In this document: in pieces, positions 1 to 61,203 of the stretch
Layout of the letters: each line of letters starts with the position of its first letter
Position numbering within the stretch: the stretch's first letter is position 1
Assembly: GCA_963789265.1 (NCBI GenBank)
Contig: CAWBKB010000003.1
Span: forward strand, 704,001-768,000
Direction: 5' to 3'
DNA from: an uncultured delta proteobacterium
GTDB taxonomy: Bacteria > Desulfobacterota > Desulfomonilia > Desulfomonilales > Desulfomonilaceae
DNA length: 64,000 nucleotides
Notes under the pieces: model-generated
Seen by the model: the letters and a program-made list of their open reading frames with translations, nothing else
The model's database searches: none
What the model was told of the DNA's origin: nothing
Position numbers and translations under genes: made by a program

Positions 1-441
1 GCGAGATTCCGTGCGCCTGTCTGTAGACTTTCGAGGTGTGTTTGTTTCAATCTCAATGTTTCACCCTATAACACTCCCATTCCGAAAAATAAATGCGGTC
101 AAGGTTCGAGCATTACCAGGCGCGGGCAAGAGCCTTTTCCCCAAACAAAATATCTCAGGATGCGCGCACCGGGCGGCTTACACGGTTCCATCCCACCCTT
201 GGTTTAAAGATGGGGCAGCCGCCTCCGAACAGTCAGCCTCATTCCAAAAATGTTTTCACAAGATTGTTGCGTTTTCAAAATGCTTCTAATAGGATTTTTG
301 CCGAGGCTTGGCAAGCGGGCTGTCATAGTCCGGCTGGAAGTTTGGAGTTCAGTTTGGCTCCGATCGCTCGTTGCAGCGTCATGCCGAATGAAAAACTGAA
401 GTCATGAACGCGGCCGGACCAAGGGGGCAAGGAGATCGAGA

Positions 442-618
442 ATGGAACTTACTGAAGCTCTGGTAAGTGGGACCCGTGACGAAATAATTGAGATCACCCT
501 CTCGGGAGATGAGGATGAATGGAGTGAAATCGCAGCAGTGCTCAAAGAGTCTGATTCAGACCTGGCGACGGAATTGGGTCTGAAAATCAGAGAAGCACTT
601 CGGAATGCCGGCCAGTAG
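442..618 (+). CDS. small acidic hypothetical protein (58 aa, below ORF-track cutoff)
   Basis: AAGGAG RBS at 429-434, ATG 442, open frame MELTEALVSGTRDEIIEITLSGDEDEWSEIAAVLKESDSDLATELGLKIREALRNAGQ, TAG 616-618. Confidence 0.6.
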   Translation: MELTEALVSGTRDEIIEITLSGDEDEWSEIAAVLKESDSDLATELGLKIREALRNAGQ

Positions 619-705
619 TAGGCCCTGCCGAAACGCTCATCGGCTCGAACCGCTACAGATGCAGAATCGGTCGCATCAGACGAATCGAGGAGCCAGAAAT
701 GCCGG

Positions 706-1681
706 CTAGCCCTGCGGGGTCCCAGTCGACCGACACTCGACAACATGCGCCTCGGACCCGGAACTCTGGGGCTTGCGCGCTTCTGAATCCTGATCTGAAT
801 GAAAGACCCCTGAAGACATGAGCTTCTCAACAACCTCGCCTGCCCTGTAAGAACTTCTTACTAAAGGCCCGGCAAAAACTTCCGTCATTCCAGCAGCTAC
901 TGCCAGCTCTTTTAGGTCTTCAAACTCTTCGGGCGGGACAAATCGGCGGACCGGATGATGGTAAACTGTGGGCTGAAGATATTGTCCGATCGTCAACACC
1001 ACGCATCGTACTTCGACCAAATCCCTCACAACGGCCATTATCTCTTCTCGGGTTTCACCTACACCAACCATTATGCCCGATTTGGTCACTGTGCTCTCTC
1101 CCCACTGACCAACGCGCCTGAGCAATTCCAAGGACCTCTCGTATGATGATCCTTGCCGCAATATGGGGTAGAGCCGCGGTACACGTCTCCAGGTTGTGCC
1201 CTATGACGTCCGGCCTGGAGTCGATAACAGTCCGCAGAGCCTCCTCCGAACCCATAAAGTCCGGGATCAGTACTTCAACCGTAGTGCGGTTTGAGAACTT
1301 CCGGATAGCGAGCACGGTTTCTGAGAATACTGAAGAGCCGCCGTCGGGTAGGTCATCCCTTGTCACTGAGGTTACCACCACGTGACGAAGAGCAAGGGAT
1401 GCGACTGAACCGGCCACAAGCTCCGGTTCACCTTCGCTCAGAGCGGCGGGTTTTCCGTGCGTTACCGCGCAAAAACCGCAATTTCGAGTGCATTTGTCAC
1501 CGAGTATAAGGAATGTCGCGGCCCCTCTAGCGGCGCATTCGCCCTCATTGGGACAGCGAGCTTCTCGACAAACGGTATGAAGCCCTTTGCCGTACGTTTT
1601 GCTGCGCATACCGGCCACCACGGCCGCGCTGGGCAACGAGCTTTTAATCCAAGGCGGAAATCGGCGCGTAGGCATTTTCAT
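706..1681 (-). CDS. lipA: lipoyl synthase (radical SAM), +1 frameshift near 1184
   Basis: CxxxxCxxxxxC (CREARCPNEGEC), CxxxCxxC (CTRNCGFC), HNLET, TIGQYLQP, GPLVRSSYRA across ORFs 1055..1693 and 706..1161; GAGGA RBS before ATG 1681. Confidence 0.93.
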
Positions 1682-1937
1682 AAGTATCCTCAAGCGCGCA
1701 ATAGCTCACCCCTGTACACCGGACTCAAAGGGTCGATGCTCTTGGACCGCAACCGGGCCATCCATCGCGCCGTTGCGTCACTTCGCACTGCTGCGCTCAA
1801 AAGGTCACGTTTCATTTCGGTGCACAAGTGCCGGATGAACCGGCGCGTATTTGCGAGAAAAGCAACGGATGGAGACCCGTGGGATATATCTGAGCAACAA
1901 TTAGCCGATTAGCGCCGATCCCCTCTATTTGAGCCTC

Positions 1938-2115
1938 AAAAAAATGAAGACCGTCTCCGGTAAGGTATCAAGGGGGGGGAGTCATGATACAAATGGAAGA
2001 CGGCCTTTCGTCCTTAAAAATATCTCTGGTCCGTACAAAAGTCAACCCCTACGAACCGAAAAAGACGTAGGGGTGTTGGATGACTCCCGGGGCCGCACGA
2101 TACCATAGCCGGTTG
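1938..2115 (-). ncRNA. candidate structured sRNA or leader (~180 nt)
   Basis: TTGACA-N16-TATCCT promoter (2148..2121), long bulged hairpin 2027-2105, second hairpin 1949-2005 with C-rich loop followed by U-tract. Confidence 0.5.
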
Positions 2116-2412: not shown

Positions 2413-2735
2413 CATTCAGTTGCGTGGGGTAGGCCTTCCGAAACTGTCTCAAAACCGTTCGATGCACGAAATTCGTAGCACGATGCTCCCTTTTCCCGGC
2501 AATGAATTACCGGGCTACTATCTGCGGTCCCTCCGGGACGCTTGCATCTAAGCCCCATCGGGGCGATAGAAAGTAGACCGGCGCTTCAGCGCCGGGCTGA
2601 CATCGTGGCGCGATGCCGGGGATCAAAATAGTTTTGAGACACTTTCTTCCAGCCTGCCTGGGAAAGTCCTGTTCAATGGCGGGCTAGAAAGCTCACCCCA
2701 CGAAGTCACCGGCAAATTCCGGCTGTAACTGAATG
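2413..2735. mobile_element. family-A MITE/REP shell (CATTCAGTT...GTAACTGAATG) interrupted by a family-B MITE
   Basis: Terminal inverted repeats; body matches copies at 50160 and 58530. Confidence 0.75.
2440..2646. mobile_element. family-B MITE (GAAACTGTCTCAAAA...TTTTGAGACACTTTC)
   Basis: 15-bp TIR, flanking TTCC direct repeat (2436-2439 / 2647-2650); internal sequence shared with 40713-40931. Confidence 0.8.
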
Positions 2736-51070: not shown

Positions 51071-52660
51071 TTAACCCTCCTTAAGTTCCTCCAGAACCTG
51101 CCTGAGTATGTCCGGCTTTACCTCCATGCCTGGTTCCACTGCACCAATTTTTCTTATCAAGACAAAGCGTACGCGGCCGCCGATGTTCTTTTTGTCAGCG
51201 GCCATTGCCTTGACAAGCCCGGTCGGATCCTCACTGTGACAAATCGGCAGGCCGGTTCGGCTCAGCAGAGACTCCAGCCTGTCCGGTTCATCCGAGGAGC
51301 ACAGCCCCATTTTCTCGGAAATTCTTGCCGCGGCAACAAGACCGATGGCAACGGCTTCTCCGTGGCCCAAGGCGTATCCACTGCACTTTTCCAGCGCGTG
51401 GCCCACCGTGTGCCCGAGATTCAAGACTTCACGCAGGCCGGATTCAAAAGGATCGGCTTCCACAACCCGAACCTTGACGTTGGCTGAACGAGCCACCAGG
51501 GCGGGACTCAAGTTGGATGGTCGATCGGCGCTCTCTAGAGCCTCAAAGAGTTCGGGGTCACCGATCACGGCATGTTTGATAAGCTCTGCCATGCCCATCC
51601 GAATTTCTCTTTCCGGAAGTGTGGCGAGCGTTTGCGTGTCCGCAGCAACCAGCACCGGCTGTTTGAAGGCCCCCACGAGATTTTTCCCCTGAGGCAGGTC
51701 AACCCCCGTCTTACCGCCCACACTGGAATCGACCATGGCCAGCAGCGTAGTCGGGCATTGAACCAGAGTTATCCCTCGCATGTAAGTTGCCGCTGCGAAT
51801 CCTGCCAAGTCTCCGATCACGCCGCCACCCAGTGCGATCACAGCGCCGCGACGATCCAGTCCTCCTTCCAAAAAGGAGTTATAGAGGAAGCTGAGTTGCT
51901 CGAGGTTTTTGCTCTCCTCTCCCGGTGGAACTTTGAATACAAAGGGCTTGAAACCTGCACTCTCGAGTGCTGTGACCACCTGATGCGCGTACAATTTGGC
52001 GACGTTCAGGTCTGTGACCACGGCAATCCTGGAAGTAAGGCCCCTTTCTCTGAGTTGCTCCCCGAGCAGATCAAGGACTCCAGGCCCTATGCCAATTGTG
52101 TAACCACCACCGGGAAGATTCACTGCAATAAACATGGATGGGTCTTTTCCGTTGCTAACGATTTGATGCAAGCGATTGACCGCCCTTTCCACAAGTGAAT
52201 CCGTGGTGTCCACGTGGTATGCAAATGACACGTACGCAGCTTCACGTTCACGAAGAAGCGCTTTCACACGCTGGATGCGGTCTTCACCCTCTATCATGGG
52301 GCGTTTTTCGTTCCTGCAGACCCGGGTCAGAATCTCATCTGCCGAGCACCGCAGGCAGACTACAATACCCGCGGAATTCAGGAGCTTGCGATTTTCCGGA
52401 TCCAATGGCATCCCCCCGCCGGTGGCTACCACCGCGCCCCGCTGAGTCACGAGTTCCCGGCACAATTGTCTTTCCAGATCACGGAAGTGCCCCTCACCAT
52501 GCCTGGTGAAGATTTCAGAGACGGACGCTCCTGCACGACGCTCTATTTCCGCGTCCGTGTCGAGAAATCTCAATCCAAGCCGCGAAGCGAGCGCGCGACC
52601 TATAGTAGTCTTTCCTGTGCCCATGAAACCAGTAAGGATTATATTTGCGTATGCTGTCAT
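51071..52660 (-). CDS. aroKB: shikimate kinase / 3-dehydroquinate synthase fusion
   Basis: GFMGTGKTT, ATGGG, RP; then GEESK, GGGVIGDLAGF, PTTLLAMVDSSVGGKTG, LNLGHTVGHALE, HGEAVA. Confidence 0.95.
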   Translation of the reverse strand: MTAYANIILTGFMGTGKTTIGRALASRLGLRFLDTDAEIERRAGASVSEIFTRHGEGHFRDLERQLCRELVTQRGAVVATGGGMPLDPENRKLLNSAGIVVCLRCSADEILTRVCRNEKRPMIEGEDRIQRVKALLREREAAYVSFAYHVDTTDSLVERAVNRLHQIVSNGKDPSMFIAVNLPGGGYTIGIGPGVLDLLGEQLRERGLTSRIAVVTDLNVAKLYAHQVVTALESAGFKPFVFKVPPGEESKNLEQLSFLYNSFLEGGLDRRGAVIALGGGVIGDLAGFAAATYMRGITLVQCPTTLLAMVDSSVGGKTGVDLPQGKNLVGAFKQPVLVAADTQTLATLPEREIRMGMAELIKHAVIGDPELFEALESADRPSNLSPALVARSANVKVRVVEADPFESGLREVLNLGHTVGHALEKCSGYALGHGEAVAIGLVAAARISEKMGLCSSDEPDRLESLLSRTGLPICHSEDPTGLVKAMAADKKNIGGRVRFVLIRKIGAVEPGMEVKPDILRQVLEELKEG

Positions 52661-52736
52661 AGTTGTTCAAAAACCTGTCTGAGTATTCATAATCACTAAC
52701 TCATTGTCATGCTGTCTCGCAATTTCAACAGCTTAT

Positions 52737-52817
52737 CACCCTCCCCCTTCCCCCTCCCTTCGAGGGAGGGGATCAAGAAAACCCTCGCCCCTGGCGGGAG
52801 AGGGCAGGGTGAGGGGG
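52737..52817. repeat. REP pair (CCCTCCC...GGGAGAGGGCAGGGTGAGGGG)
   Basis: Related to the 44088-44181 unit. Confidence 0.7.
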
Positions 52818-52896
52818 ATTTGCGGAATCAAAACGCCGCATTAAGTCAGCGCCTATGGTATGAGTGCACGGGATAGACACTGTTCCGTTGGTATTT

Positions 52897-54081
52897 TCAC
52901 TCGTACCCGAATCTCCAGGGAATATTGTCCATGGGAAGATCCGCGATTCTAGAACTTCTCAGGCTCCGGAATCTTGACGTCATCTCATCCAGGCCGTCTC
53001 CGCCGAGCTTTTCTATCAAGGCATCGGCAAGGACAAACGCAACCATTGCTTCAGCCACAACAGACGCCCGGGGGACAGCGCATATATCGCTACGTTCGTA
53101 CGTCGTCTTCACGCGTTCGCCTGTGGCCAGATCAACGGAGTGAATGCCCTTGAGAGTCGTGCTGATAGGCTTCATGGCCGCTCGGATCAGTAGTGGGGCG
53201 CCTGTAGTTATGCCCCCTTCCAGGCCGGCAGCCCGGTTCGATCCCCGTTTCAAAGCAGTTTCTATCTCATCTTGATCACGAACGATTTCGTCGTGAACGT
53301 TAGAGCCTCGCTCACAGGCGTCCACAAACGCGTTGCCGAACTGAACACCCTTGATGGCAGGAATAGACCCCACCGCGGCCATGAGCCTGCCGGTGAGCCT
53401 TCGATCCCACTCCACGTGGCTTCCAAGTCCGGGCGGGACATTAAGCGCAACGCACTGGAAAATCCCTCCCAGAGTATCACCTTCCTCTCTGGCTTTTCCG
53501 ATCTCCGCGACCATTGCGGTACTGGCCTCGTTGTCAGGACATCGGACAGGCGATGTCTCCGCTTGGCGGAACAATAGGCCATAATCGGGCCTTTCAGGGA
53601 CTTCAGCTTCAACAGGGCCTATGGAAAGCACATAAGAGCCTATTCTGATGTCAAAGCATCCGAGAAATTTCCGACAGATGGCCCCCATGGCGACACGCGC
53701 CGCAGTCTCTCTTGCCGAAGCCCGTTCCAATCCCAGTCTAAGTTCCCTGTAACCGTATTTAACTGCTGAAGTCAGGTCAGCGTGGCCGGGTCTGGGAATT
53801 GTCATGGGAGGAATATCCCGGTCGCGCCAGGAATTGAAGTCTTTGTTGGCAATTATGAGCGAGACTGGGGCGCCGGTGGTCTGCCCGGCCATGATGCCTC
53901 CCGTAATTCTCGCGCGGTCATCTTCTATTGACATTCGGCCGCCTGACCCTTCGCTCCGCTGGCGTCGGGCCAGTTCGAAATCTATGTCCGTTCGAGAAAT
54001 AGGGATCGCGGCAGGGAGGCCTTCGAGAATAACTGTGAGTTCAGGTCCGTGGGATTCGCCCGCGGTCAGAAATCTCAGCAT
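52897..54081 (-). CDS. aroC: chorismate synthase
   Basis: LRFLTAGESHG, PRPGHAD, ERASARETA, GGLEGG-like AGLEGGIT, MKPIST, ERSDIC. Confidence 0.96.
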   Translation of the reverse strand: MLRFLTAGESHGPELTVILEGLPAAIPISRTDIDFELARRQRSEGSGGRMSIEDDRARITGGIMAGQTTGAPVSLIIANKDFNSWRDRDIPPMTIPRPGHADLTSAVKYGYRELRLGLERASARETAARVAMGAICRKFLGCFDIRIGSYVLSIGPVEAEVPERPDYGLLFRQAETSPVRCPDNEASTAMVAEIGKAREEGDTLGGIFQCVALNVPPGLGSHVEWDRRLTGRLMAAVGSIPAIKGVQFGNAFVDACERGSNVHDEIVRDQDEIETALKRGSNRAAGLEGGITTGAPLLIRAAMKPISTTLKGIHSVDLATGERVKTTYERSDICAVPRASVVAEAMVAFVLADALIEKLGGDGLDEMTSRFRSLRSSRIADLPMDNIPWRFGYE

Positions 54082-54920
54082 AGTGCTACCGCCTGCTTCA
54101 TTACGGCTAATGGCGCCGCTTTGCCTGTCCAGAGTGAAAATGCAATCGCAGCCTGATGGACCAACATTCCAAGTCCGTTTGTCGCCTTAACCCCCGCATC
54201 TTGCGCCTGTTCCATAAGACGCGTGCGAGGCGGATTGTACACCAGGTCATAGACCATTCGGCACTTGCGAAAACTTGTCCCCTCCGGCCACGGAGAATAA
54301 TCTGTCTTGGGAGCCATGCCCAGTGGAGTGGTATTTACGATCAGATCTACGTCCCGGTCCGGTTCCTGAAGCCTTTGAAGCGTCCAAGTTTCGACAAAGC
54401 CCTTCAAATCGGATTTTGTCAAACGCGCAACAATGGCTCCGGCTGTTTCGTCATTCCGACTGCACACAGCCACCCTTGCCCCATTCGAAACCAGAGCATA
54501 AGCTACCGCCCGAGCCGAGCCGCCTGATCCTAGTATTACGGCAGTACATCCATCGGGGTCAAAGCCCATTTCCTTAAGATGGCAGAGGAAACCGGTCCAA
54601 TCCGTGTTTTCTCCTATCAGGCTTCCGTCGGGCCCGACCGTAATTGTGTTGACTGCTCCGATCTCTGAGGCATCCGCGGAAACACTATCGAGAAATGGGA
54701 TGACCCTCTCTTTGTACGGCAGCGTCACATTGACCGCTCGGAATCCCAGCGCAGGCAACCCTTTTATGGCCCCTGCCAAGTAGTGCGGCTCCACAGGCAG
54801 CGGCACGTAAAGCCAATCCATGCCCAGTAACTGAAATGCCGCGTTGTGCATTGCAGGGCTCAGACTATGCGCGACAGGATTCCCTATGATGCCGACCAGC
54901 TGTGTAGCGCCCGTCACCAT
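54075..54920 (-). CDS. aroE: shikimate dehydrogenase
   Basis: GNPVAHSLSPAMHN, NVTLPYK, GAVNT, NTD, GSGGSARA, NTTPLGM, DLVYNP, GLGMLVHQA. Confidence 0.95.
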   Translation of the reverse strand: MVTGATQLVGIIGNPVAHSLSPAMHNAAFQLLGMDWLYVPLPVEPHYLAGAIKGLPALGFRAVNVTLPYKERVIPFLDSVSADASEIGAVNTITVGPDGSLIGENTDWTGFLCHLKEMGFDPDGCTAVILGSGGSARAVAYALVSNGARVAVCSRNDETAGAIVARLTKSDLKGFVETWTLQRLQEPDRDVDLIVNTTPLGMAPKTDYSPWPEGTSFRKCRMVYDLVYNPPRTRLMEQAQDAGVKATNGLGMLVHQAAIAFSLWTGKAAPLAVMKQAVALC

Positions 54921-56257
54921 TGAACGTCTGCCCCTAGCCCTTTTAGAATGCGGGGGAATTCCGGGAATGAATCGTTGATGATTTCCCATCCTTGAATCAA
55001 CGTTTCCCCCTCGGCCACAAGACCTGCAATTGCCAGACTCATGCCCAATCTGTGATCTCCGCGAGCGTTCACAACAGCGCCGGTAAGTTTGCGCGGACCG
55101 TTGATAGTAAAACCGTCGGCCGCGGTTTGGATGTCGGCCCCCATTTTATTCAATTCCTCAGCCAGCGTGTCGATCCTATCGCTTTCTTTGACCCGAAGTT
55201 CCTCTGCGTCCCGCACGACGGTTGTGCCGCTTGCTTGAGTGGCAGCGACTGCAAGTATTGGAAACTCATCAATCATCCTGACAACGATTGCTCCTTGTAC
55301 GGTAGTCCCCCGGAGCGCTCCCGACTCCACTGTAATGGTCCCCGTCGGTTCGCCATTGGATTCCGTCGCTCCATTCACACGCAGGTTTCCTCCCATCGAG
55401 TGCAGCACGTCGAATAATCCTGTCCGTCCTGGATTAAGGCAGAGATTCGTGACCTGAAGGCTCGAATCGGGAACCAGTAAGCCCGCTGTTACAAGGAACG
55501 CGGCAGAGGACGGGTCGGAAGGAAGGTGTACGTCCAGCGGTGGAAGAGAGGTGATGGGTCCCGAAACGGTCACGTGGTGTCGGCCCTCTTGGTCTTCATA
55601 TTCTGTAACGGGCACACCCAGGCTCTTAAGCATACGTTCTGTGTGATCTCTACTTGTGAAGGGCTCGATCACTGTCGTGGGACCGTCAGTGAAAAGACCT
55701 GCCAACAGGAGCGCGGATTTTACTTGCGCGCTGGCTACTGGAAGGAGATGCTGCGACGGCTGCAATCGAGACGGGAAAAATGTCAGAGGTGCGTTTCCGT
55801 TGTCTGTCTCGATTTTAGCCCCTTTTGTGCGAAGTGGTTCCACGACCCGACCCATAGGCCGTGCACGTAGGCGGTCATTGCCGTCAAGGGTGGACTGAAA
55901 TGCCTGGCCCGCCAGGATTCCGGCCATTAATCGCATAGTCGTGGCCGAACCTCGACAGTGGAGAGGCGCGGAAGGCACCGCAAAACCTACCAGATCCTTA
56001 CCTGTTACCAGGAGATCGGCAGCCCCGGGCTGGATAGTCGGCCTGAGTTCTTCAACCACCTGTACTCCAAGCGTCTGAAGGCATTCGATCATTGCAAGAC
56101 TGACCCCAGCCTTCGCGCAATTCCGGATCCGTGAGACTCCGCTCCCGAGAGAAGCGAACAACAGGGCTCGGTGCGATAAAGATTTGTCCCCCGGCAATGA
56201 CACGACCCCGCGCAAACGGCGGGTGGGCCGAATTCGAAGGGTCTTGGGATCAGCCAT
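54914..56257 (-). CDS. aroA: EPSP synthase
   Basis: PGDKSLSHR, RPMGR, ASAQVKSA, SRDHTERM, IDEFP, ELRVKESDR, DHRLGM. Confidence 0.96.
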   Translation of the reverse strand: MADPKTLRIRPTRRLRGVVSLPGDKSLSHRALLFASLGSGVSRIRNCAKAGVSLAMIECLQTLGVQVVEELRPTIQPGAADLLVTGKDLVGFAVPSAPLHCRGSATTMRLMAGILAGQAFQSTLDGNDRLRARPMGRVVEPLRTKGAKIETDNGNAPLTFFPSRLQPSQHLLPVASAQVKSALLLAGLFTDGPTTVIEPFTSRDHTERMLKSLGVPVTEYEDQEGRHHVTVSGPITSLPPLDVHLPSDPSSAAFLVTAGLLVPDSSLQVTNLCLNPGRTGLFDVLHSMGGNLRVNGATESNGEPTGTITVESGALRGTTVQGAIVVRMIDEFPILAVAATQASGTTVVRDAEELRVKESDRIDTLAEELNKMGADIQTAADGFTINGPRKLTGAVVNARGDHRLGMSLAIAGLVAEGETLIQGWEIINDSFPEFPRILKGLGADVQW

Positions 56258-57152
56258 TCGTACGGGTTCCTTCCTCAGAGGATATATGTGGGTGAAACAT
56301 TGCTGTTCTGCGTTCTCGTATTTGGCTCAGGATTTTTCGCAAGGCTCCGTTATCCTCATCCTTGATGGCACTTGCAAATCTTTTCATCATTCGTTGGGCC
56401 AACTCAAGCATTTGAAGCACGTTGTCCCGGTTGACTGCAAGAATGTCCGTCATCATGGTCAAATCAGCGCCTGCAACTCTTGAGGTGTCCCTGAACCCGC
56501 TTGAGGCCAAGTTCCACACATCGGGTTCTTCCGACGCGGTTACTTCGGCAACCGCGACTAGGGTCGAGGCGAGAAGATAAGGGAGATGGCTGACGCATGC
56601 TGCGACCAGGTCATGGTCGTCCGCGTTCATCGGCATAGGCCGTGCACCCACAAGCTTAACCATCTGTTCGATGAGACTAAACGCTTCAGGGTCGGTCCGC
56701 TCCGTACGAATGAGCACCCATGTCTTGCCCAGGAACAAGTCCGCGTCTGATGTATAAAGGCCGGGTGTCTCTTTTCCGCACATCGGATGCCCGGCCACCG
56801 CCCTGATGTGCGGCGGCAATTGGTCCATAACCTTCAATATGTTCCGTTTGACGCTGCCCATATCCGTTACGATGGCGCCGGCCTTCATGAAAGAGTGTAG
56901 CGGCAGGATTTGCTGTTCAATGGTGCAGACCGGGGTTGCAAAGACCACCACTTCGGCACCATCGAGAAGCTGTTGCGGATCTACACCGGCGATGTGAGCT
57001 GCTCCAAGGGCTACAGCCTCCTCTGCGATAGCCTGACGCCTTACCAGTCCCCTGACTTCCCGGCAAACTTCGCCTCGTACCAGCGCTTTGCCGAGGCTCC
57101 CCCCCATGAGCCCCAGGCCCACAATCGTAATCGTCAAATCTGAAAGCGTCAC
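56250..57152 (-). CDS. tyrA: prephenate/arogenate dehydrogenase
   Basis: IVGLGLMGGS, TDMGSVK, GHPMCGKE, HD, SHLP, SGFRDTSRVA. Confidence 0.93.
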   Translation of the reverse strand: MTLSDLTITIVGLGLMGGSLGKALVRGEVCREVRGLVRRQAIAEEAVALGAAHIAGVDPQQLLDGAEVVVFATPVCTIEQQILPLHSFMKAGAIVTDMGSVKRNILKVMDQLPPHIRAVAGHPMCGKETPGLYTSDADLFLGKTWVLIRTERTDPEAFSLIEQMVKLVGARPMPMNADDHDLVAACVSHLPYLLASTLVAVAEVTASEEPDVWNLASSGFRDTSRVAGADLTMMTDILAVNRDNVLQMLELAQRMMKRFASAIKDEDNGALRKILSQIRERRTAMFHPHISSEEGTRTNG

Positions 57153-57283: not shown

Positions 57284-58297
57284 TCAAATGGTTCTCCCCA
57301 CCGCCTCGGCAACCGGACGCAGCTCGTCCATAAGCGCTTGAAACTCATGGGGGCGGAGGCTTTGCGCGCCGTCAGACAGCGCATTCTCAGGGTCCGGATG
57401 GACTTCAATAATGAGTCCGTCGGCCCCCGCGGCGATGGCCGCGCGACTCACCGCGGGTACGTATTCGCGCTTTCCGGTGCCGTGGCTCGGATCCAGTATA
57501 ACCGGAAGGTGGCTCAGGGATTTAAGCACGGGTACAGCATTGATGTCCACGGTGTTCCGGGTGGAAGTCTCGAAAGTGCGTATTCCACGTTCACAAAGAA
57601 TTACGCGCGGGTTGTTGTGGCTCAGTATGTATTCCGCGGCGTTGAGAAACTCTTCTATTGTGCTCATGAGTCCGCGCTTAAGGAGCACCGGTTTATGGGA
57701 TGCGCCCACCGCGTTGAGCAGAGCAAAATTCTGCATGTTGCGCGCGCCCACCTGCAGCACATCCGCGTACTGAGCTACCAGCGGCACTTGTTCCGGCGTT
57801 GTGACCTCGGTTACGACCGCGAGGCCCGCCACGTCCCTAGCTTGCGCCAGGAGCTTGAGACCTTCCTCTCCGAGGCCTTGAAAGCTGTATGGCGAGGTCC
57901 GAGGTTTGAACGCGCCGCCTCTTAGGGCTGTTGCTCCTGCCTTTTTCACCGCGAGCGCCGTCTGAATGAGTTGATCTTTGTTTTCGACCGCGCAGGGGCC
58001 GGCCATGATAATGATTTTCTTGCTCCCAATATGGGACCCGTCGATGGAGAAGACCGTGTCTTCTTTCTTGAAGTCCCGACTGGCAAGCTTAAACGGCCCC
58101 AAAAGCGGAACCACACGCTCGACGCCCTCCAAGCACTCGAAAGCGTCCGCTTCCACTCCACTATTGTCGCCGACAACCCCAACGATGGTGCGAATCTTCC
58201 CTCTGGAAACATGGGCCTTCATTCCCACGGCTTCCACCTTGGTCAAAACCCGCGCCACCTGGCCCTCAGTTGCTTCCTTTTTCATGACTACCACCAT
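57284..58297 (-). CDS. aroF: DAHP synthase type I-beta with N-terminal regulatory domain
   Basis: [48 protein letters not shown]. Confidence 0.95.
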
Positions 58298-58309
58298 CTT
58301 TTTTCCTCC

Positions 58310-58346
58310 AAAAAAAAGATGCGGAGCGCTTGCTCCGCATCTTTTT
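58310..58346 (-). terminator. attenuator terminator upstream of aroF
   Basis: AAAAAGATGCGGAGC-AAGC-GCTCCGCATCTTTTTTTT directly before the GGAGG RBS of aroF. Confidence 0.85.
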
Positions 58347-58384
58347 GTTCCGTTGTATGGATTATCTAACAGCAGAAGCGCGCG

Positions 58385-58459
58385 TCAACCTCCGGGGGGC
58401 CCAAAATAGTACCACCAAAAATACCGAGAAGACGCGCTCATGTGCTGCAACTGACTCAT
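58385..58459 (-). CDS. aro operon leader peptide MSQLQHMSASSRYFWWYYFGPPGG
   Basis: GAGG RBS, 24 codons with 7 consecutive aromatic codons, followed by terminator; TTGACA-N17-TATTTC promoter at 58514..58486. Confidence 0.85.
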   Translation of the reverse strand: MSQLQHMSASSRYFWWYYFGPPGG

Positions 58460-58529
58460 AGTTTCAAAATGCCTCTTATCTTACAGAAATACGATCCCAT
58501 GAAAATTATGTCAAGACTTTTTTTGTGAG

Positions 58530-58653
58530 CATTCAGTTTTGTGGGGCAGTCCCGCGAGGCGCGGGACTGCCTGCCGGAGGAAACCCCGGTTCGATGGCGG
58601 GCTGGAAAGCCCACCCCACGAAGCCACTGGCAAATTCAGGCTGTAACTGAATG
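58530..58653. repeat. family-A shell with GTGGGG...CCCCAC core
   Basis: CATTCAGTT...GTAACTGAATG, copy of the 50160 element. Confidence 0.8.
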
Positions 58654-58768
58654 CATACCTTTCTTGGAAAGATGGTCTGTTAGTTTACTCCAGACCTTGA
58701 ATTCATCGGTCGTTCTGTGAATAATCCAGACACCTACATCAATACCACTTGATTCAGCAAGGCGGACC

Positions 58769-59860
58769 ATGACTAAACAGAACCTCGAAGAGTTGCGTGC
58801 CCGGATAGACGAACTTGACAATGATATAGTCAAACTCCTGAACCACAGAATGGCCTTATGTCAGAAGATAGGACAGTTAAAATCCGCGGCTGCTCGAAAC
58901 GTTGTCGACCGGGAGCGAGAAGCGGAAATCCTTCAGCGACTTGCCTCCGAGAACTCCGGCCCTCTTTCCGAGCAGGCGCTGTCCGCTGTATTTCGCGAAA
59001 TTTTCTCGGGCTCCAGGGCCTTGCAAGCCCCCGTGACCATAGCCTTCCTGGGGCCCGCCGGCACGTACACCCATGAGGCTGCTATAGAGATGTTCGGGCA
59101 TTCAGCTACGTTCATTCCCTGCCTGACCGTGCGGGATGTCTTTGAAGAGGTGGTTCATGGAGGCGTTACCTATGCCGTAGCCCCCATAGAGAATAGTATT
59201 GAGGGGTCTGTCCGAGAGACCTTGGACCTGTTGATGACTTCCTCGATCGGCGTTTGCAAAGAAGTCTCTCTGAGGGTGAGCCACGCGCTCATGAACCTCA
59301 CGGGAAAAATCGAAGATATCCGGCAAGTAATCTCCCACCCCCAGGCACTAGCTCAGTGCCGTCGGTGGTTGGCCGACAAACTTCCGGACGTTCCGCTGCG
59401 AGATACGTCCAGCACCGCCAGAGCGGCCGAACTGGCAATAGAGGATGTGGGAACAGCGGCAATCGCGAGTGAAAGAATTGGCGTAAGATTGGGCTTGCAA
59501 ATAATACGACGCGGCATTCAAGACAGCCCCGAGAATATTACACGATTCTTCGCCCTGGGGCGCATCAAACCGACACCGACCGGAGATGACAAGACATCAA
59601 TAGTGTTTTGGACTGAAGACAAGCCTGGGGCATTGCACAAGATACTCAAGAAATTCGCTCAGCATGGAATAAACCTGTCAAGGATAGAATCTCGCCCGGA
59701 CCGTGGAGCGGTTGCTTGGAAATATGCATTCTTCGTGGACCTGGAAGGTCATAGAGACGATCCGGAAGTGGCAACTTGTTTGAAGGAAATCACCGGCAAG
59801 AGAACTATGGTTAAAGTGCTGGGATCGTTTCCCAGCCGCTCTCTGCCCCCCGGTGAGTAA
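58769..59860 (+). CDS. pheA: chorismate mutase / prephenate dehydratase (P-protein)
   Basis: LRARIDELD, RE, FLGPAGTYT, PIENSIEG, SHPQALAQC, NITRF, INLSRIESRP. Confidence 0.96.
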   Translation: MTKQNLEELRARIDELDNDIVKLLNHRMALCQKIGQLKSAAARNVVDREREAEILQRLASENSGPLSEQALSAVFREIFSGSRALQAPVTIAFLGPAGTYTHEAAIEMFGHSATFIPCLTVRDVFEEVVHGGVTYAVAPIENSIEGSVRETLDLLMTSSIGVCKEVSLRVSHALMNLTGKIEDIRQVISHPQALAQCRRWLADKLPDVPLRDTSSTARAAELAIEDVGTAAIASERIGVRLGLQIIRRGIQDSPENITRFFALGRIKPTPTGDDKTSIVFWTEDKPGALHKILKKFAQHGINLSRIESRPDRGAVAWKYAFFVDLEGHRDDPEVATCLKEITGKRTMVKVLGSFPSRSLPPGE

Positions 59861-60027
59861 AAAGGAGTCGTCTTCAAAGAACCACGGGAATTTTGTATTA
59901 TGAGAATATTATGTAACAATAACACCTAAATATATCTTATATATAATCCTAAGTAGCAAATATCTTGACAATACATTATTTTTATGAGATAAACATCTCC
60001 AGTAAATAAAACACCATACCCTATGTT

Positions 60028-60053
60028 GCCCGGCTTTGCCGGGCTTTTTTTTT
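60028..60053 (+). terminator. intrinsic terminator
   Basis: GCCCGGC-TTT-GCCGGGC followed by T9. Confidence 0.85.
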
Positions 60054-60187
60054 GCCGCGATTCATGTTGACTTGCCCGGACCGGCCTGGCTAGACTCGCC
60101 TTGGTGCTTCTTATATTAACAGCCTTCAGACAACCGGCTGCAAGGCGAATCGTATCAACCGGCTTCCAACCACTAGAGGGTTCGACA

Positions 60188-60616
60188 ATGAAAATTCTCG
60201 TATTGCATGGTCCCAACCTCAACCTTCTCGGCGTTAGAGAGCCCGATGTCTACGGGCATCTCAGTCTGAGCGAGATAGATAAAGAACTGGCCACCCGTGC
60301 GAAACGCCTTGGGGCGGAACTTCGCACCTTGCAATCCAATCATGAGGGAGTGTTGATTGACGCCATTCACGAGGCCCTTGGGTGGGCAGACGGAATCCTG
60401 ATCAATCCCGGTGCCTTTACCCATACAAGTCTGGCCCTGCGCGACGCTGTTGCGGCAACCGCCATACCAGCCGTGGAGGTTCACTTATCCAACATTTACG
60501 CTCGGGAGGAGTTTCGTCACAAGTCGGTGATCGCGGGGGCCTGCTTGGGTCAGATTTCGGGGTTTGGAGCCAATTCTTACTATCTGGGGCTCGAAGCGTT
60601 AGTAGGACCCACGTAA
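60188..60616 (+). CDS. aroQ: type II 3-dehydroquinate dehydratase
   Basis: [45 protein letters not shown]. Confidence 0.96.
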
Positions 60617-60919: not shown

Positions 60920-60948
60920 TTGACAACAGCCGAGTAGTCTTTTATTCT
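60920..60948 (+). promoter_or_regulatory. sigma70-like trp promoter
   Basis: TTGACA-N17-TATTCT. Confidence 0.7.
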
Positions 60949-60971
60949 GGCTGACGGCAGGTAACAACTCC

Positions 60972-61037
60972 ATGATATCCATAAGCAACCGAAACTGGTG
61001 GTGGTGCTGGAAAATCAAACACGGGAGGTCTGCCTGA
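60972..61037 (+). CDS. trpL: trp operon leader peptide MISISNRNWWWCWKIKHGRSA
   Basis: Four TGG codons; GTCTGCC (61028-34) complementary to GGCAGAC (61097-103) in the terminator. Confidence 0.88.
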   Translation: MISISNRNWWWCWKIKHGRSA

Positions 61038-61087
61038 GCCGCGATACAAAGTCATAAAGTGTAAAATAGGCATCTAAAACGGAAATA

Positions 61088-61118
61088 AAGGCCATGGGCA
61101 GACACCCCATGGCCTTTT
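61088..61118 (+). terminator. trp attenuator terminator
   Basis: AAGGCCATGGG-CAGACAC-CCCATGGCCTTTT. Confidence 0.8.
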
Positions 61119-61203
61119 CGCGTTCTGGACTTAGGAGCTTGACGATGGGCAGCGACGACATGTCCTGCCACACCCTCATATTTGACCTGAAAGGCTGTGC
61201 ATC

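Follow-up and report, generated by a model that had tools for sequence, protein, structure and literature searches.

A conserved leader peptide rich in mixed aromatic codons as a probable transcription attenuator of the aroF operon in Desulfomonilaceae

In Escherichia coli, the genes of the common shikimate pathway and tyrA are controlled mainly by repression through TyrR and TrpR. The enterobacterial leaders thrL (Thr/Ile) and ilvL (Leu/Val/Ile) each integrate several tRNA charging levels of the pathway that they control. Here we describe an element of similar logic, but with different amino acids and a different pathway and with no sequence relationship to those leaders, in 64,000 nucleotides of DNA (the window) from an uncultured delta proteobacterium of the family Desulfomonilaceae (GenBank assembly GCA_963789265.1, contig CAWBKB010000003.1, positions 704,001 to 768,000). 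It occupies positions 58514..58297 on the minus strand, from a TTGACA hexamer through to the ATG of aroF at 58297, and all features of the element and of the aroF operon are read on that strand. On comparative and folding evidence it is very probably a ribosome-mediated leader-peptide transcription attenuator of aroF-tyrA-aroA-aroE-aroC(-aroKB). A first-pass annotation, made from the sequence alone, had proposed that an attenuator here responds jointly to Tyr, Phe and Trp and controls the shikimate operon. Conservation and folding support the attenuator, while the trivalent response is predicted from the codons and the inclusion of aroKB in the operon is putative.

The closest described systems share parts of this design. 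The enterobacterial trpL-trpEDCBA and pheL-pheA attenuators, summarised in PMC11802643, have a short leader in which the translated codons for the end product stand in tandem, alternative 1:2, 2:3 and 3:4 hairpins, an intrinsic terminator just ahead of the first gene and a stop codon beside segment 2; the aroF leader has the corresponding sequence parts, with its translation and the switch between hairpins predicted. It differs in using a mix of three amino acids where trpL and pheL have one regulatory amino acid, in its target, the common shikimate pathway plus tyrA, in the position of its aromatic run, which occupies the apical loop joining segments 1 and 2 and not segment 1 itself, and in having no match to an Rfam leader family at E values up to 10. 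In Corynebacterium glutamicum, aroF is preceded by the leader peptide aroR with a Phe-Tyr-Phe motif (Mentz et al. 2013, PMC4046766). Like the present leader, aroR encodes more than one kind of aromatic residue before a gene for 3-deoxy-D-arabino-heptulosonate 7-phosphate (DAHP) synthase and is linked to attenuation, but the likeness is one of functional analogy only: aroR belongs to a different phylum and its motif, as given there, has neither Trp nor a long run, whereas seven consecutive aromatic codons are present here. The uORFC-13-1 motif of Acholeplasma is a predicted upstream open reading frame (uORF) with Phe codons beside an intrinsic terminator; it is confined to sites upstream of aroF, and attenuation is its proposed mode of action (Brewer et al. 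2021, PMC8632094). It too combines an aromatic-codon uORF with an intrinsic terminator at aroF, and is set apart by its description, which gives Phe codons only, Mollicutes as hosts and 24 representatives. For E. coli aroF-tyrA, attenuation sensing Tyr-tRNA was proposed by Camakaris et al. (1980, as cited in PMC8632094 and PMC2659441); target and idea are the same, but the proposal as cited is a physiological hypothesis without a defined leader, whereas here leader and switch are defined and conserved.

An Rfam search (cmscan) of 57500..59500 at E values up to 10 returned only sub-threshold chance matches, of which ylbH scored highest (18.1 bits; gathering score 50), and none of the Rfam leader families (Trp_leader, Phe_leader, T-box and others) matched the aroF leader at or near its gathering score. 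The sole match at gathering threshold in the whole window was an Acido-Lenti-1 RNA (RF01687) at 2551..2596 (-), with 39.3 bits against 37. No description of the aroF element was found in the literature on delta-proteobacterial or Desulfomonile attenuators and leader peptides, subscription journals lying outside the search. Rodionov et al. (2004, PMC545781) was rejected as a source on delta-proteobacterial aromatic attenuators, as its text contains none of the terms attenuator, leader peptide, aromatic, aroF or DAHP. The aroF leader is an uncatalogued version of a textbook attenuation mechanism. What sets it apart is that its run is long, that all three aromatic amino acids recur so consistently and that it belongs to a set of three leaders.

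The sequence parts named in the first-pass annotation, namely a TTGACA-N17-TATTTC promoter, a GAGG ribosome-binding site and a 24-codon open reading frame (ORF) containing seven successive aromatic codons, were all found as described (Table 1). Such runs are rare in this organism. In the six frames of the 6.06-Mb genome, runs of at least seven aromatic codons were observed three times, against approximately 0.2 expected from triplet frequencies; besides the aroF leader, one lies within a long open frame and one is a (TTC)10 repeat. At least six aromatic residues in eight were encoded by 22 of 73,826 ATG-initiated ORFs of 8-60 codons, or about 0.0008 per 450 nt of one strand. The aromatic run of the leader is therefore not a product of chance. 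Three other aromatic runs, FFFWYFF at C6:369303, WWWWWW at C1:1568635 and YWWWW at C3:780088 (our contig numbers), were rejected as leaders because they have no nearby start codon or lie inside long open frames.

Conservation of the ORF and its run in relatives had been named at first pass as a check, and both were present at all 35 loci of the class that were examined. The 223-nt leader DNA matched 21 of 61 related genomes (20 of the 36 others of its own family, and none of the 24 of a sister family in the same class). When the 23 matched loci were searched with tblastn, an aroF orthologue adjoined the match in 22, and all 22 carried a short ORF with 6-8 aromatic residues in eight, starting 158-182 nt before aroF. 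The locus L023 (G015:C40) was dropped as an unrelated short match to the U-tract and Shine-Dalgarno (SD) part, a regular expression for the terminator 3′ arm and T-run having found nothing there. We also located aroF by protein in all 61 genomes, which added three orthologues, each with a leader. An equivalent leader thus precedes 25 of 25 assessable aroF orthologues of the family, one more at a contig edge being left out. In the sister family, leaders of about 23-27 codons, such as MNRSANRFYGYYFWFNRVRPPVG, stand before 10 of 10 sampled aroF genes, with quite different terminator sequences. No leader was found before the seven paralogous or distant DAHP synthase genes sampled in the family. 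Relatives exchange TAT for TAC and TTT for TTC yet keep the aromatic residues, which points to selection acting on the meaning of the aromatic codons and not on the RNA alone.

The conserved hairpin, sought in public genomes with one genome taken per species, was found at 28 loci, mostly in metagenome-assembled genomes labelled Desulfomonilaceae, Desulfomonile or 'delta proteobacterium'. The T-tail, aromatic leader and aroF were found together at 25 of them; the other three are bare palindromes elsewhere. Outside the class, 72 genomes of the phylum have an aroF hit; we took the best one in 40 of them and scored an ORF with at least five aromatic residues in eight followed by a hairpin and T-run within 120 nt. 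Such leaders were present in 14 of the 40, across about 12 families. As judged from these sequences, the design is widespread, and since aroF leader peptides are moreover already in print, the novelty implied by the first-pass annotation was overstated.

The signals for expression of the leader recur as well. Each of the 22 aligned family leaders has a CTTGAC hexamer 50-57 nt upstream of its ATG (19 by the regular expression TTGAC[AGT], the other three having TTGACC), and AGG or GAGG is visible 11-12 nt from the ATG in most of them. The -10 hexamer TATTTC is weak, and the promoter was not flagged by a consensus promoter scan. With its conserved SD sequence and a predicted 5′ untranslated region (UTR) of about 20 nt, the leader differs from aroR, the transcript of which is reportedly leaderless.

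Two further observations were made on the leaders of relatives. In many sister-family leaders (L069-L078), a box like GCCGUGGG or GCCCUGGGG, similar to the terminator 5′ arm, recurs about 10-50 nt past the terminator, which hints at further pairing, possibly affecting the aroF 5′ UTR. In addition, the leader peptides of both families, and those of the Phe leaders before a fusion gene described below (L001-L022, L059-L078 and L120-L134), tend to end in Pro-Pro-x-Gly or Gly-Gly before the stop codon, examples being GPPGG, PPVG, DPPG and KPPG. In the sister family the Pro codons CCACCU show complementarity to GGGUGG of the terminator 5′ arm, and a constraint on the RNA therefore suffices to explain the Pro-Pro end.

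The leader RNA folds better than shuffled sequences (z = -3.1). In the unconstrained minimum free energy (MFE) fold, segment 1 pairs with sequence that surrounds the stop codon and continues beyond it to form a 1:2 hairpin that encloses the aromatic run, and the terminator follows. The three pairings and their mutual exclusivity, like the sequence parts and their conservation, are in silico results. The pairing of GCGCGTC within the ORF with GACGCGC, noted at first pass, is present in the MFE fold, GACGCGC overlapping the stop codon. The proposed pairing of GCTTCTGC with GCGGAGC of the terminator 5′ arm involves one G-U pair and a 1-nt bulge, is extended by GCGC:GCGC, and is seen in folds of the nascent RNA. 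The strong terminator said to abut the aroF ribosome-binding site is also there: a 15-bp hairpin of approximately -24 kcal/mol (ViennaRNA), missed by a consensus terminator scanner, is followed by U8, directly by the aroF SD sequence GGAGG and then by the aroF ATG.

The nascent-RNA folds began at the 3′ edge of a ribosome placed in the middle of the run and took in the first four bases of the terminator 3′ arm. With few exceptions among the genomes, the post-stop box GCGCGCUCC.GC paired with GC.GGAGC..GCGC, comprising bases of the terminator 5′ arm, the loop and the first bases of the 3′ arm. When pairs were counted on a structure-blind MAFFT alignment of the 22 family leaders, 92.7% of 233 antiterminator cells were paired, compared with 22-53% when the partner was slid by 1-3 columns, and 97.9% of terminator cells were paired. 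The covariation score of the whole termination conformer was reached by none of 500 shuffles. RNAalifold independently found the terminator and a 5-bp 1:2 core, AGCGC:GCGCU, the GCGCU strand of which lies within the box, with compensatory changes in 7 of 18 pairs, the 1:2 core being among those that show them. In L013 three sites have changed in concert, segment 2 and the 3′ arm both reading GCUUCGC and the 5′ arm GCGAAGC. Folded one by one, 35 of 35 leaders (25 of the family and 10 of the sister family) formed a helix enclosing the aromatic run. With the ribosome in the middle of the run, upstream sequence captured 5 nt or more of the terminator 5′ arm in 34 of the 35. The segment 2 box GCGCGCTCC is nearly invariant in the family. 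This box can form either of two mutually exclusive pairings, and the 5′ arm can form two others, which also accounts for the near-invariance of the hairpin sequence.

These elements suggest the following pathway. Transcription would start at the conserved promoter, and a ribosome would begin the 24-codon leader. With charged tRNA-Tyr, tRNA-Phe and tRNA-Trp plentiful, it would reach the UGA codon and cover segment 2 (the GCGCGCUUC box overlapping and following the stop), so that the terminator could form and RNA polymerase would halt at U8 just before the aroF SD sequence. If the leader were not translated, segment 1 would pair with segment 2 and the terminator would again form. If any one of the charged tRNAs were scarce, the ribosome would stall in Y-F-W-W-Y-Y-F, masking segment 1 and freeing segment 2, which would then sequester the terminator 5′ arm and loop and allow read-through into the aroF operon. 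Stalls at codons 13-16 (Y, F, W, W) should work best, because only then would the segment 1 core be within the ribosome footprint, about 15 nt upstream of the A site; these codons include each of the three amino acids, and each would thus have a codon in an effective position. We infer translation of the ORF, a kinetic competition between the folds and a response to each amino acid, and the response to three amino acids is predicted from the codon content of the run.

Several observations weigh against this pathway. The distance of 11-12 nt between the leader SD sequence and the ATG is rather long. Changes on both sides are seen in only two antiterminator pairs, and the antiterminator covariation score was attained by 21 of 500 shuffles; covariation here is sparse because the region is highly conserved. 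The 1:2 helices from the window's own fold are only 56-66% paired on the structure-blind alignment. Folding with and without the ribosome-covered segment, a second check named at first pass, gave a divided result. At equilibrium the terminator formed under every ribosome mask tried (probability 0.99-1.00), and the nascent-transcript folds, which were used because the equilibrium masks could not separate the states, did form the antiterminator. On these models the switch has to be kinetic, as is normal for attenuators. With a 28-nt footprint at the middle or last aromatic codons, the 1:2 helix could re-form in silico. This mask removed the 1:2 helix for stalls at the first codons of the run only, so late stalls may be ineffective unless steric effects prevent closure. 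Finally, the run lacks Trp in 2 of the 35 leaders and Phe in 3, and C. glutamicum aroR is induced by Phe limitation and unaffected by Tyr (Neshat et al. 2014, as summarised in PMC11802643), so that one of the two residues encoded by its F-Y-F motif is effective in that summary.

The last two points bear on a possible, though less probable, alternative, in which a genuine attenuator responds in effect to one or two amino acids, mainly Tyr, and the codons for Phe and Trp contribute little. The operon contains tyrA, and Tyr is the sole residue present in every run, with Trp found in 33 of the 35 and Phe in 32. It is also the commonest, with a mean of 3.4 per run in the family, and some runs are nearly pure Tyr (YRGYYYYY, YFGYYYYY, WQYYYYYW). 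Moreover, the Trp and Phe branches already have Trp-only and Phe-only leaders of their own in the same genome. However, 31 of the 35 leaders, among them all 10 sampled from the sister family, keep all three residues although their nucleotide sequences have diverged extensively. In this genome, W or WW falls in the early part of the run, geometrically the most effective, and two Trp codons are enough in E. coli trpL.

A terminator switch controlled by a ligand or protein (a riboswitch, a T-box or an RNA-binding protein), with the small ORF incidental or untranslated, is very unlikely. The hairpin ATGCGGAGCAAGCGCTCCGCAT is almost invariant across genera, even outside the antiterminator bases, which exceeds the needs of a plain terminator and might be due to the binding of a factor; its DNA is perfectly palindromic and a possible operator. 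Such invariance is, however, also expected of a mixed aromatic attenuator in which segment 3 must pair with two partners. No Rfam family matched at threshold, the best match, a terminator-like one, having an E value of 0.61. In the sister family the ORF, the aromatic run and the PPVG end are retained while the terminator sequence is wholly different, so what stays constant is the part that encodes the peptide; start codon and SD sequence are conserved, synonymous changes preserve the aromatic residues, and such ORFs have the low background given above.

A promoter-like sequence, TTGACG-16-GATAAT (10 of 12 consensus positions), lies inside the attenuator at 58361..58388 (-), between the leader stop codon and the terminator; as its -10 hexamer is not conserved beyond the nearest relative, the site is probably due to chance. 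Least probable of all is that the ORF arose by chance beside an ordinary terminator or small-RNA gene, or that this internal site is the real aroF promoter: its score in the consensus scan and the weak upstream TATTTC favour it, but the hexamer reads GATAAT in the window and changes to GGTAAT in G001 and to AACTAG in the other members of the genus, a transcript from there would still meet the terminator, and ORF and terminator accompany aroF at 35 of 35 class loci examined and are absent at 7 of 7 paralogous or distant loci.

The coordinates of the attenuator and of the operon that it would control are collected in Table 1. The aroF product is a DAHP synthase with an N-terminal ferredoxin-like (FXD) domain (Pfam PF00793 and PF18152). 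A gap of 236 nt separates aroC from aroKB, which is therefore only a putative member of the aroF transcript. No convincing internal terminators were found in the operon with a consensus scan, used as a rough check only. Because pheA, the upstream neighbour of aroF (chorismate mutase-prephenate dehydratase, by Pfam), is transcribed divergently, the attenuator hairpin cannot serve as terminator to any preceding gene on its own strand. Ahead of pheA itself there is only a promoter-like site and a short 5′ region, with no Phe leader in view. The pheA/aroF intergenic region also contains, just upstream of the -35 hexamer of the aroF leader, a strong 12-bp hairpin without a T-tract (GGCAGTCCCGCG-AGG-CGCGGGACTGCC, 58545..58572). 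On the other side of pheA, at 59960..60054 (+), an AT-rich stretch and a TTGACA-like promoter are followed by the hairpin GCCCGGC-TTT-GCCGGGC and T9. This hairpin, about 170 nt past the pheA stop codon and before aroQ (type II dehydroquinase, ~60189..60616), may be the pheA terminator or mark a small transcript.

Table 1. Parts of the aroF leader and genes of the adjoining operon, in positions of the window
Feature	Position	Strand	Details
Sigma-70-type promoter	58486..58514	-	TTGACA 58514..58509, 17-nt spacer, TATTTC 58491..58486; preceded by A-tract
SD sequence GAGG of leader ORF	58472..58475	-	12 nt ahead of ATG
Leader ORF	58385..58459	-	24 codons and TGA (58387..58385), ATG at 58459; peptide MSQLQHMSASSRYFWWYYFGPPGG
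Segment 1	58424..58448	-	GCAGCA...AGCGCGUC.UCUCGG, codons 5-12; 5′ strand of 1:2 anti-antiterminator; from MFE folds
Regulatory run	58403..58423	-	Codons 13-19, TAT TTT TGG TGG TAC TAT TTT (Y F W W Y Y F)
Segment 2	58369..58395	-	CCGGAGG.UGACGCGCGCUUCUGCUG; overlaps stop codon; core box GCGCGCUUC.GC pairs with segment 1 or segment 3
Segment 3	58326..58338	-	GCGGAGCAAGCGC; part of terminator 5′ arm, loop and first 3′-arm bases; antiterminator partner of segment 2
Intrinsic terminator	58310..58346	-	15-bp stem AAAAAGAUGCGGAGC / GCUCCGCAUCUUUUU, loop AAGC; stem-loop 58346..58313; U8 58317..58310
SD sequence and aroF	57284..58309	-	GGAGG 58309..58305, ATG 58297; first gene of the operon predicted to be controlled
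Downstream genes overall	51071..57152	-	ORF list and Pfam
tyrA (prephenate dehydrogenase)	57152..56250	-	ORF and Pfam
aroA (5-enolpyruvylshikimate 3-phosphate (EPSP) synthase)	56257..54914	-	ORF and Pfam
aroE (shikimate dehydrogenase)	54989..54075	-	ORF and Pfam; start uncertain
aroC (chorismate synthase)	54081..52897	-	ORF and Pfam
aroK-aroB fusion (shikimate kinase-3-dehydroquinate (DHQ) synthase)	52660..51071	-	ORF and Pfam

Two further leaders of this kind were identified in the same genome. Before trpE (ATG 61204), a trpL-type attenuator at 60920..61122 (+) comprises a TTGACA at ~60920, a 21-codon ORF, MISISNRNWWWCWKIKHGRSA (60972..61037), and the hairpin GGCCATGGG-CAGACAC-CCCATGGCC with TTTT (61090..61118 (+)), about 85 nt before trpE. 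Its run is Trp-only (WWWCW), and there was no match to the Rfam family Trp_leader at the gathering threshold. The Phe-only leader is a 35-codon ORF on contig C1, 953810..953703 (-), ending in SFFSFFSFFSPDPPG (FFSFFSFF; the ending is also given as FFSFFSFFSPDPPG). Two hairpin and U-tract elements follow it, and then a gene for a fusion of an FXD-containing DAHP synthase, prephenate dehydratase and an ACT domain (641 aa; ORF 148..2073 (-) in C1:951500-954000, L119; domains by Pfam), the DAHP synthase of which is a paralogue 54% identical to aroF. Orthologous fusions in 5 of 5 sampled family relatives are preceded by a Phe-dominated leader with six Phe codons each, one with a single Trp added. 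An aromatic-rich ORF (at least four aromatic residues in nine, scored without regard to a terminator) was found before 12 of 15 fusions sampled overall. Relatives and other families of the phylum also have similar fusions, with open frames of ~630-700 aa, and Phe-rich leaders.

With Trp codons only before trpE, Phe codons only before the DAHP synthase-prephenate dehydratase-ACT gene and a mixture before the common pathway and tyrA, leader composition tracks the branch that is controlled, and the organism appears to use three leaders with codon content matching the product of each unit. A broader, tentative reading joins these leaders into a three-tier attenuator set, trivalent for Tyr, Phe and Trp at the common pathway and Trp-only and Phe-only at the branches, and gives the Pro-Pro-x-Gly ends a role in pausing. 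Such a set may hold for Desulfomonilia, and perhaps for much of Desulfobacterota. The Pro-Pro-x-Gly-stop end might cause slow termination, or a pause dependent on elongation factor P, that parks the ribosome on segment 2 and enforces transcription termination. If this reading is true, the mixed leader would give the first demonstrated case of three aromatic tRNA pools being integrated by one attenuator.

The aroF leader does not alter how attenuation as such is understood. Since the leader family is absent from Rfam yet recurs widely, a curated model would improve the annotation of many genomes. For the Desulfomonilaceae, poorly studied anaerobes mostly known from metagenome bins, the leader supplies a specific and conserved means by which the common aromatic pathway would be regulated, and repression of the enterobacterial TyrR/TrpR type should not be assumed in this family. 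The occurrence of mixed, Trp-only and Phe-only leaders in one genome provides a natural experiment on codon content in relation to branch points.

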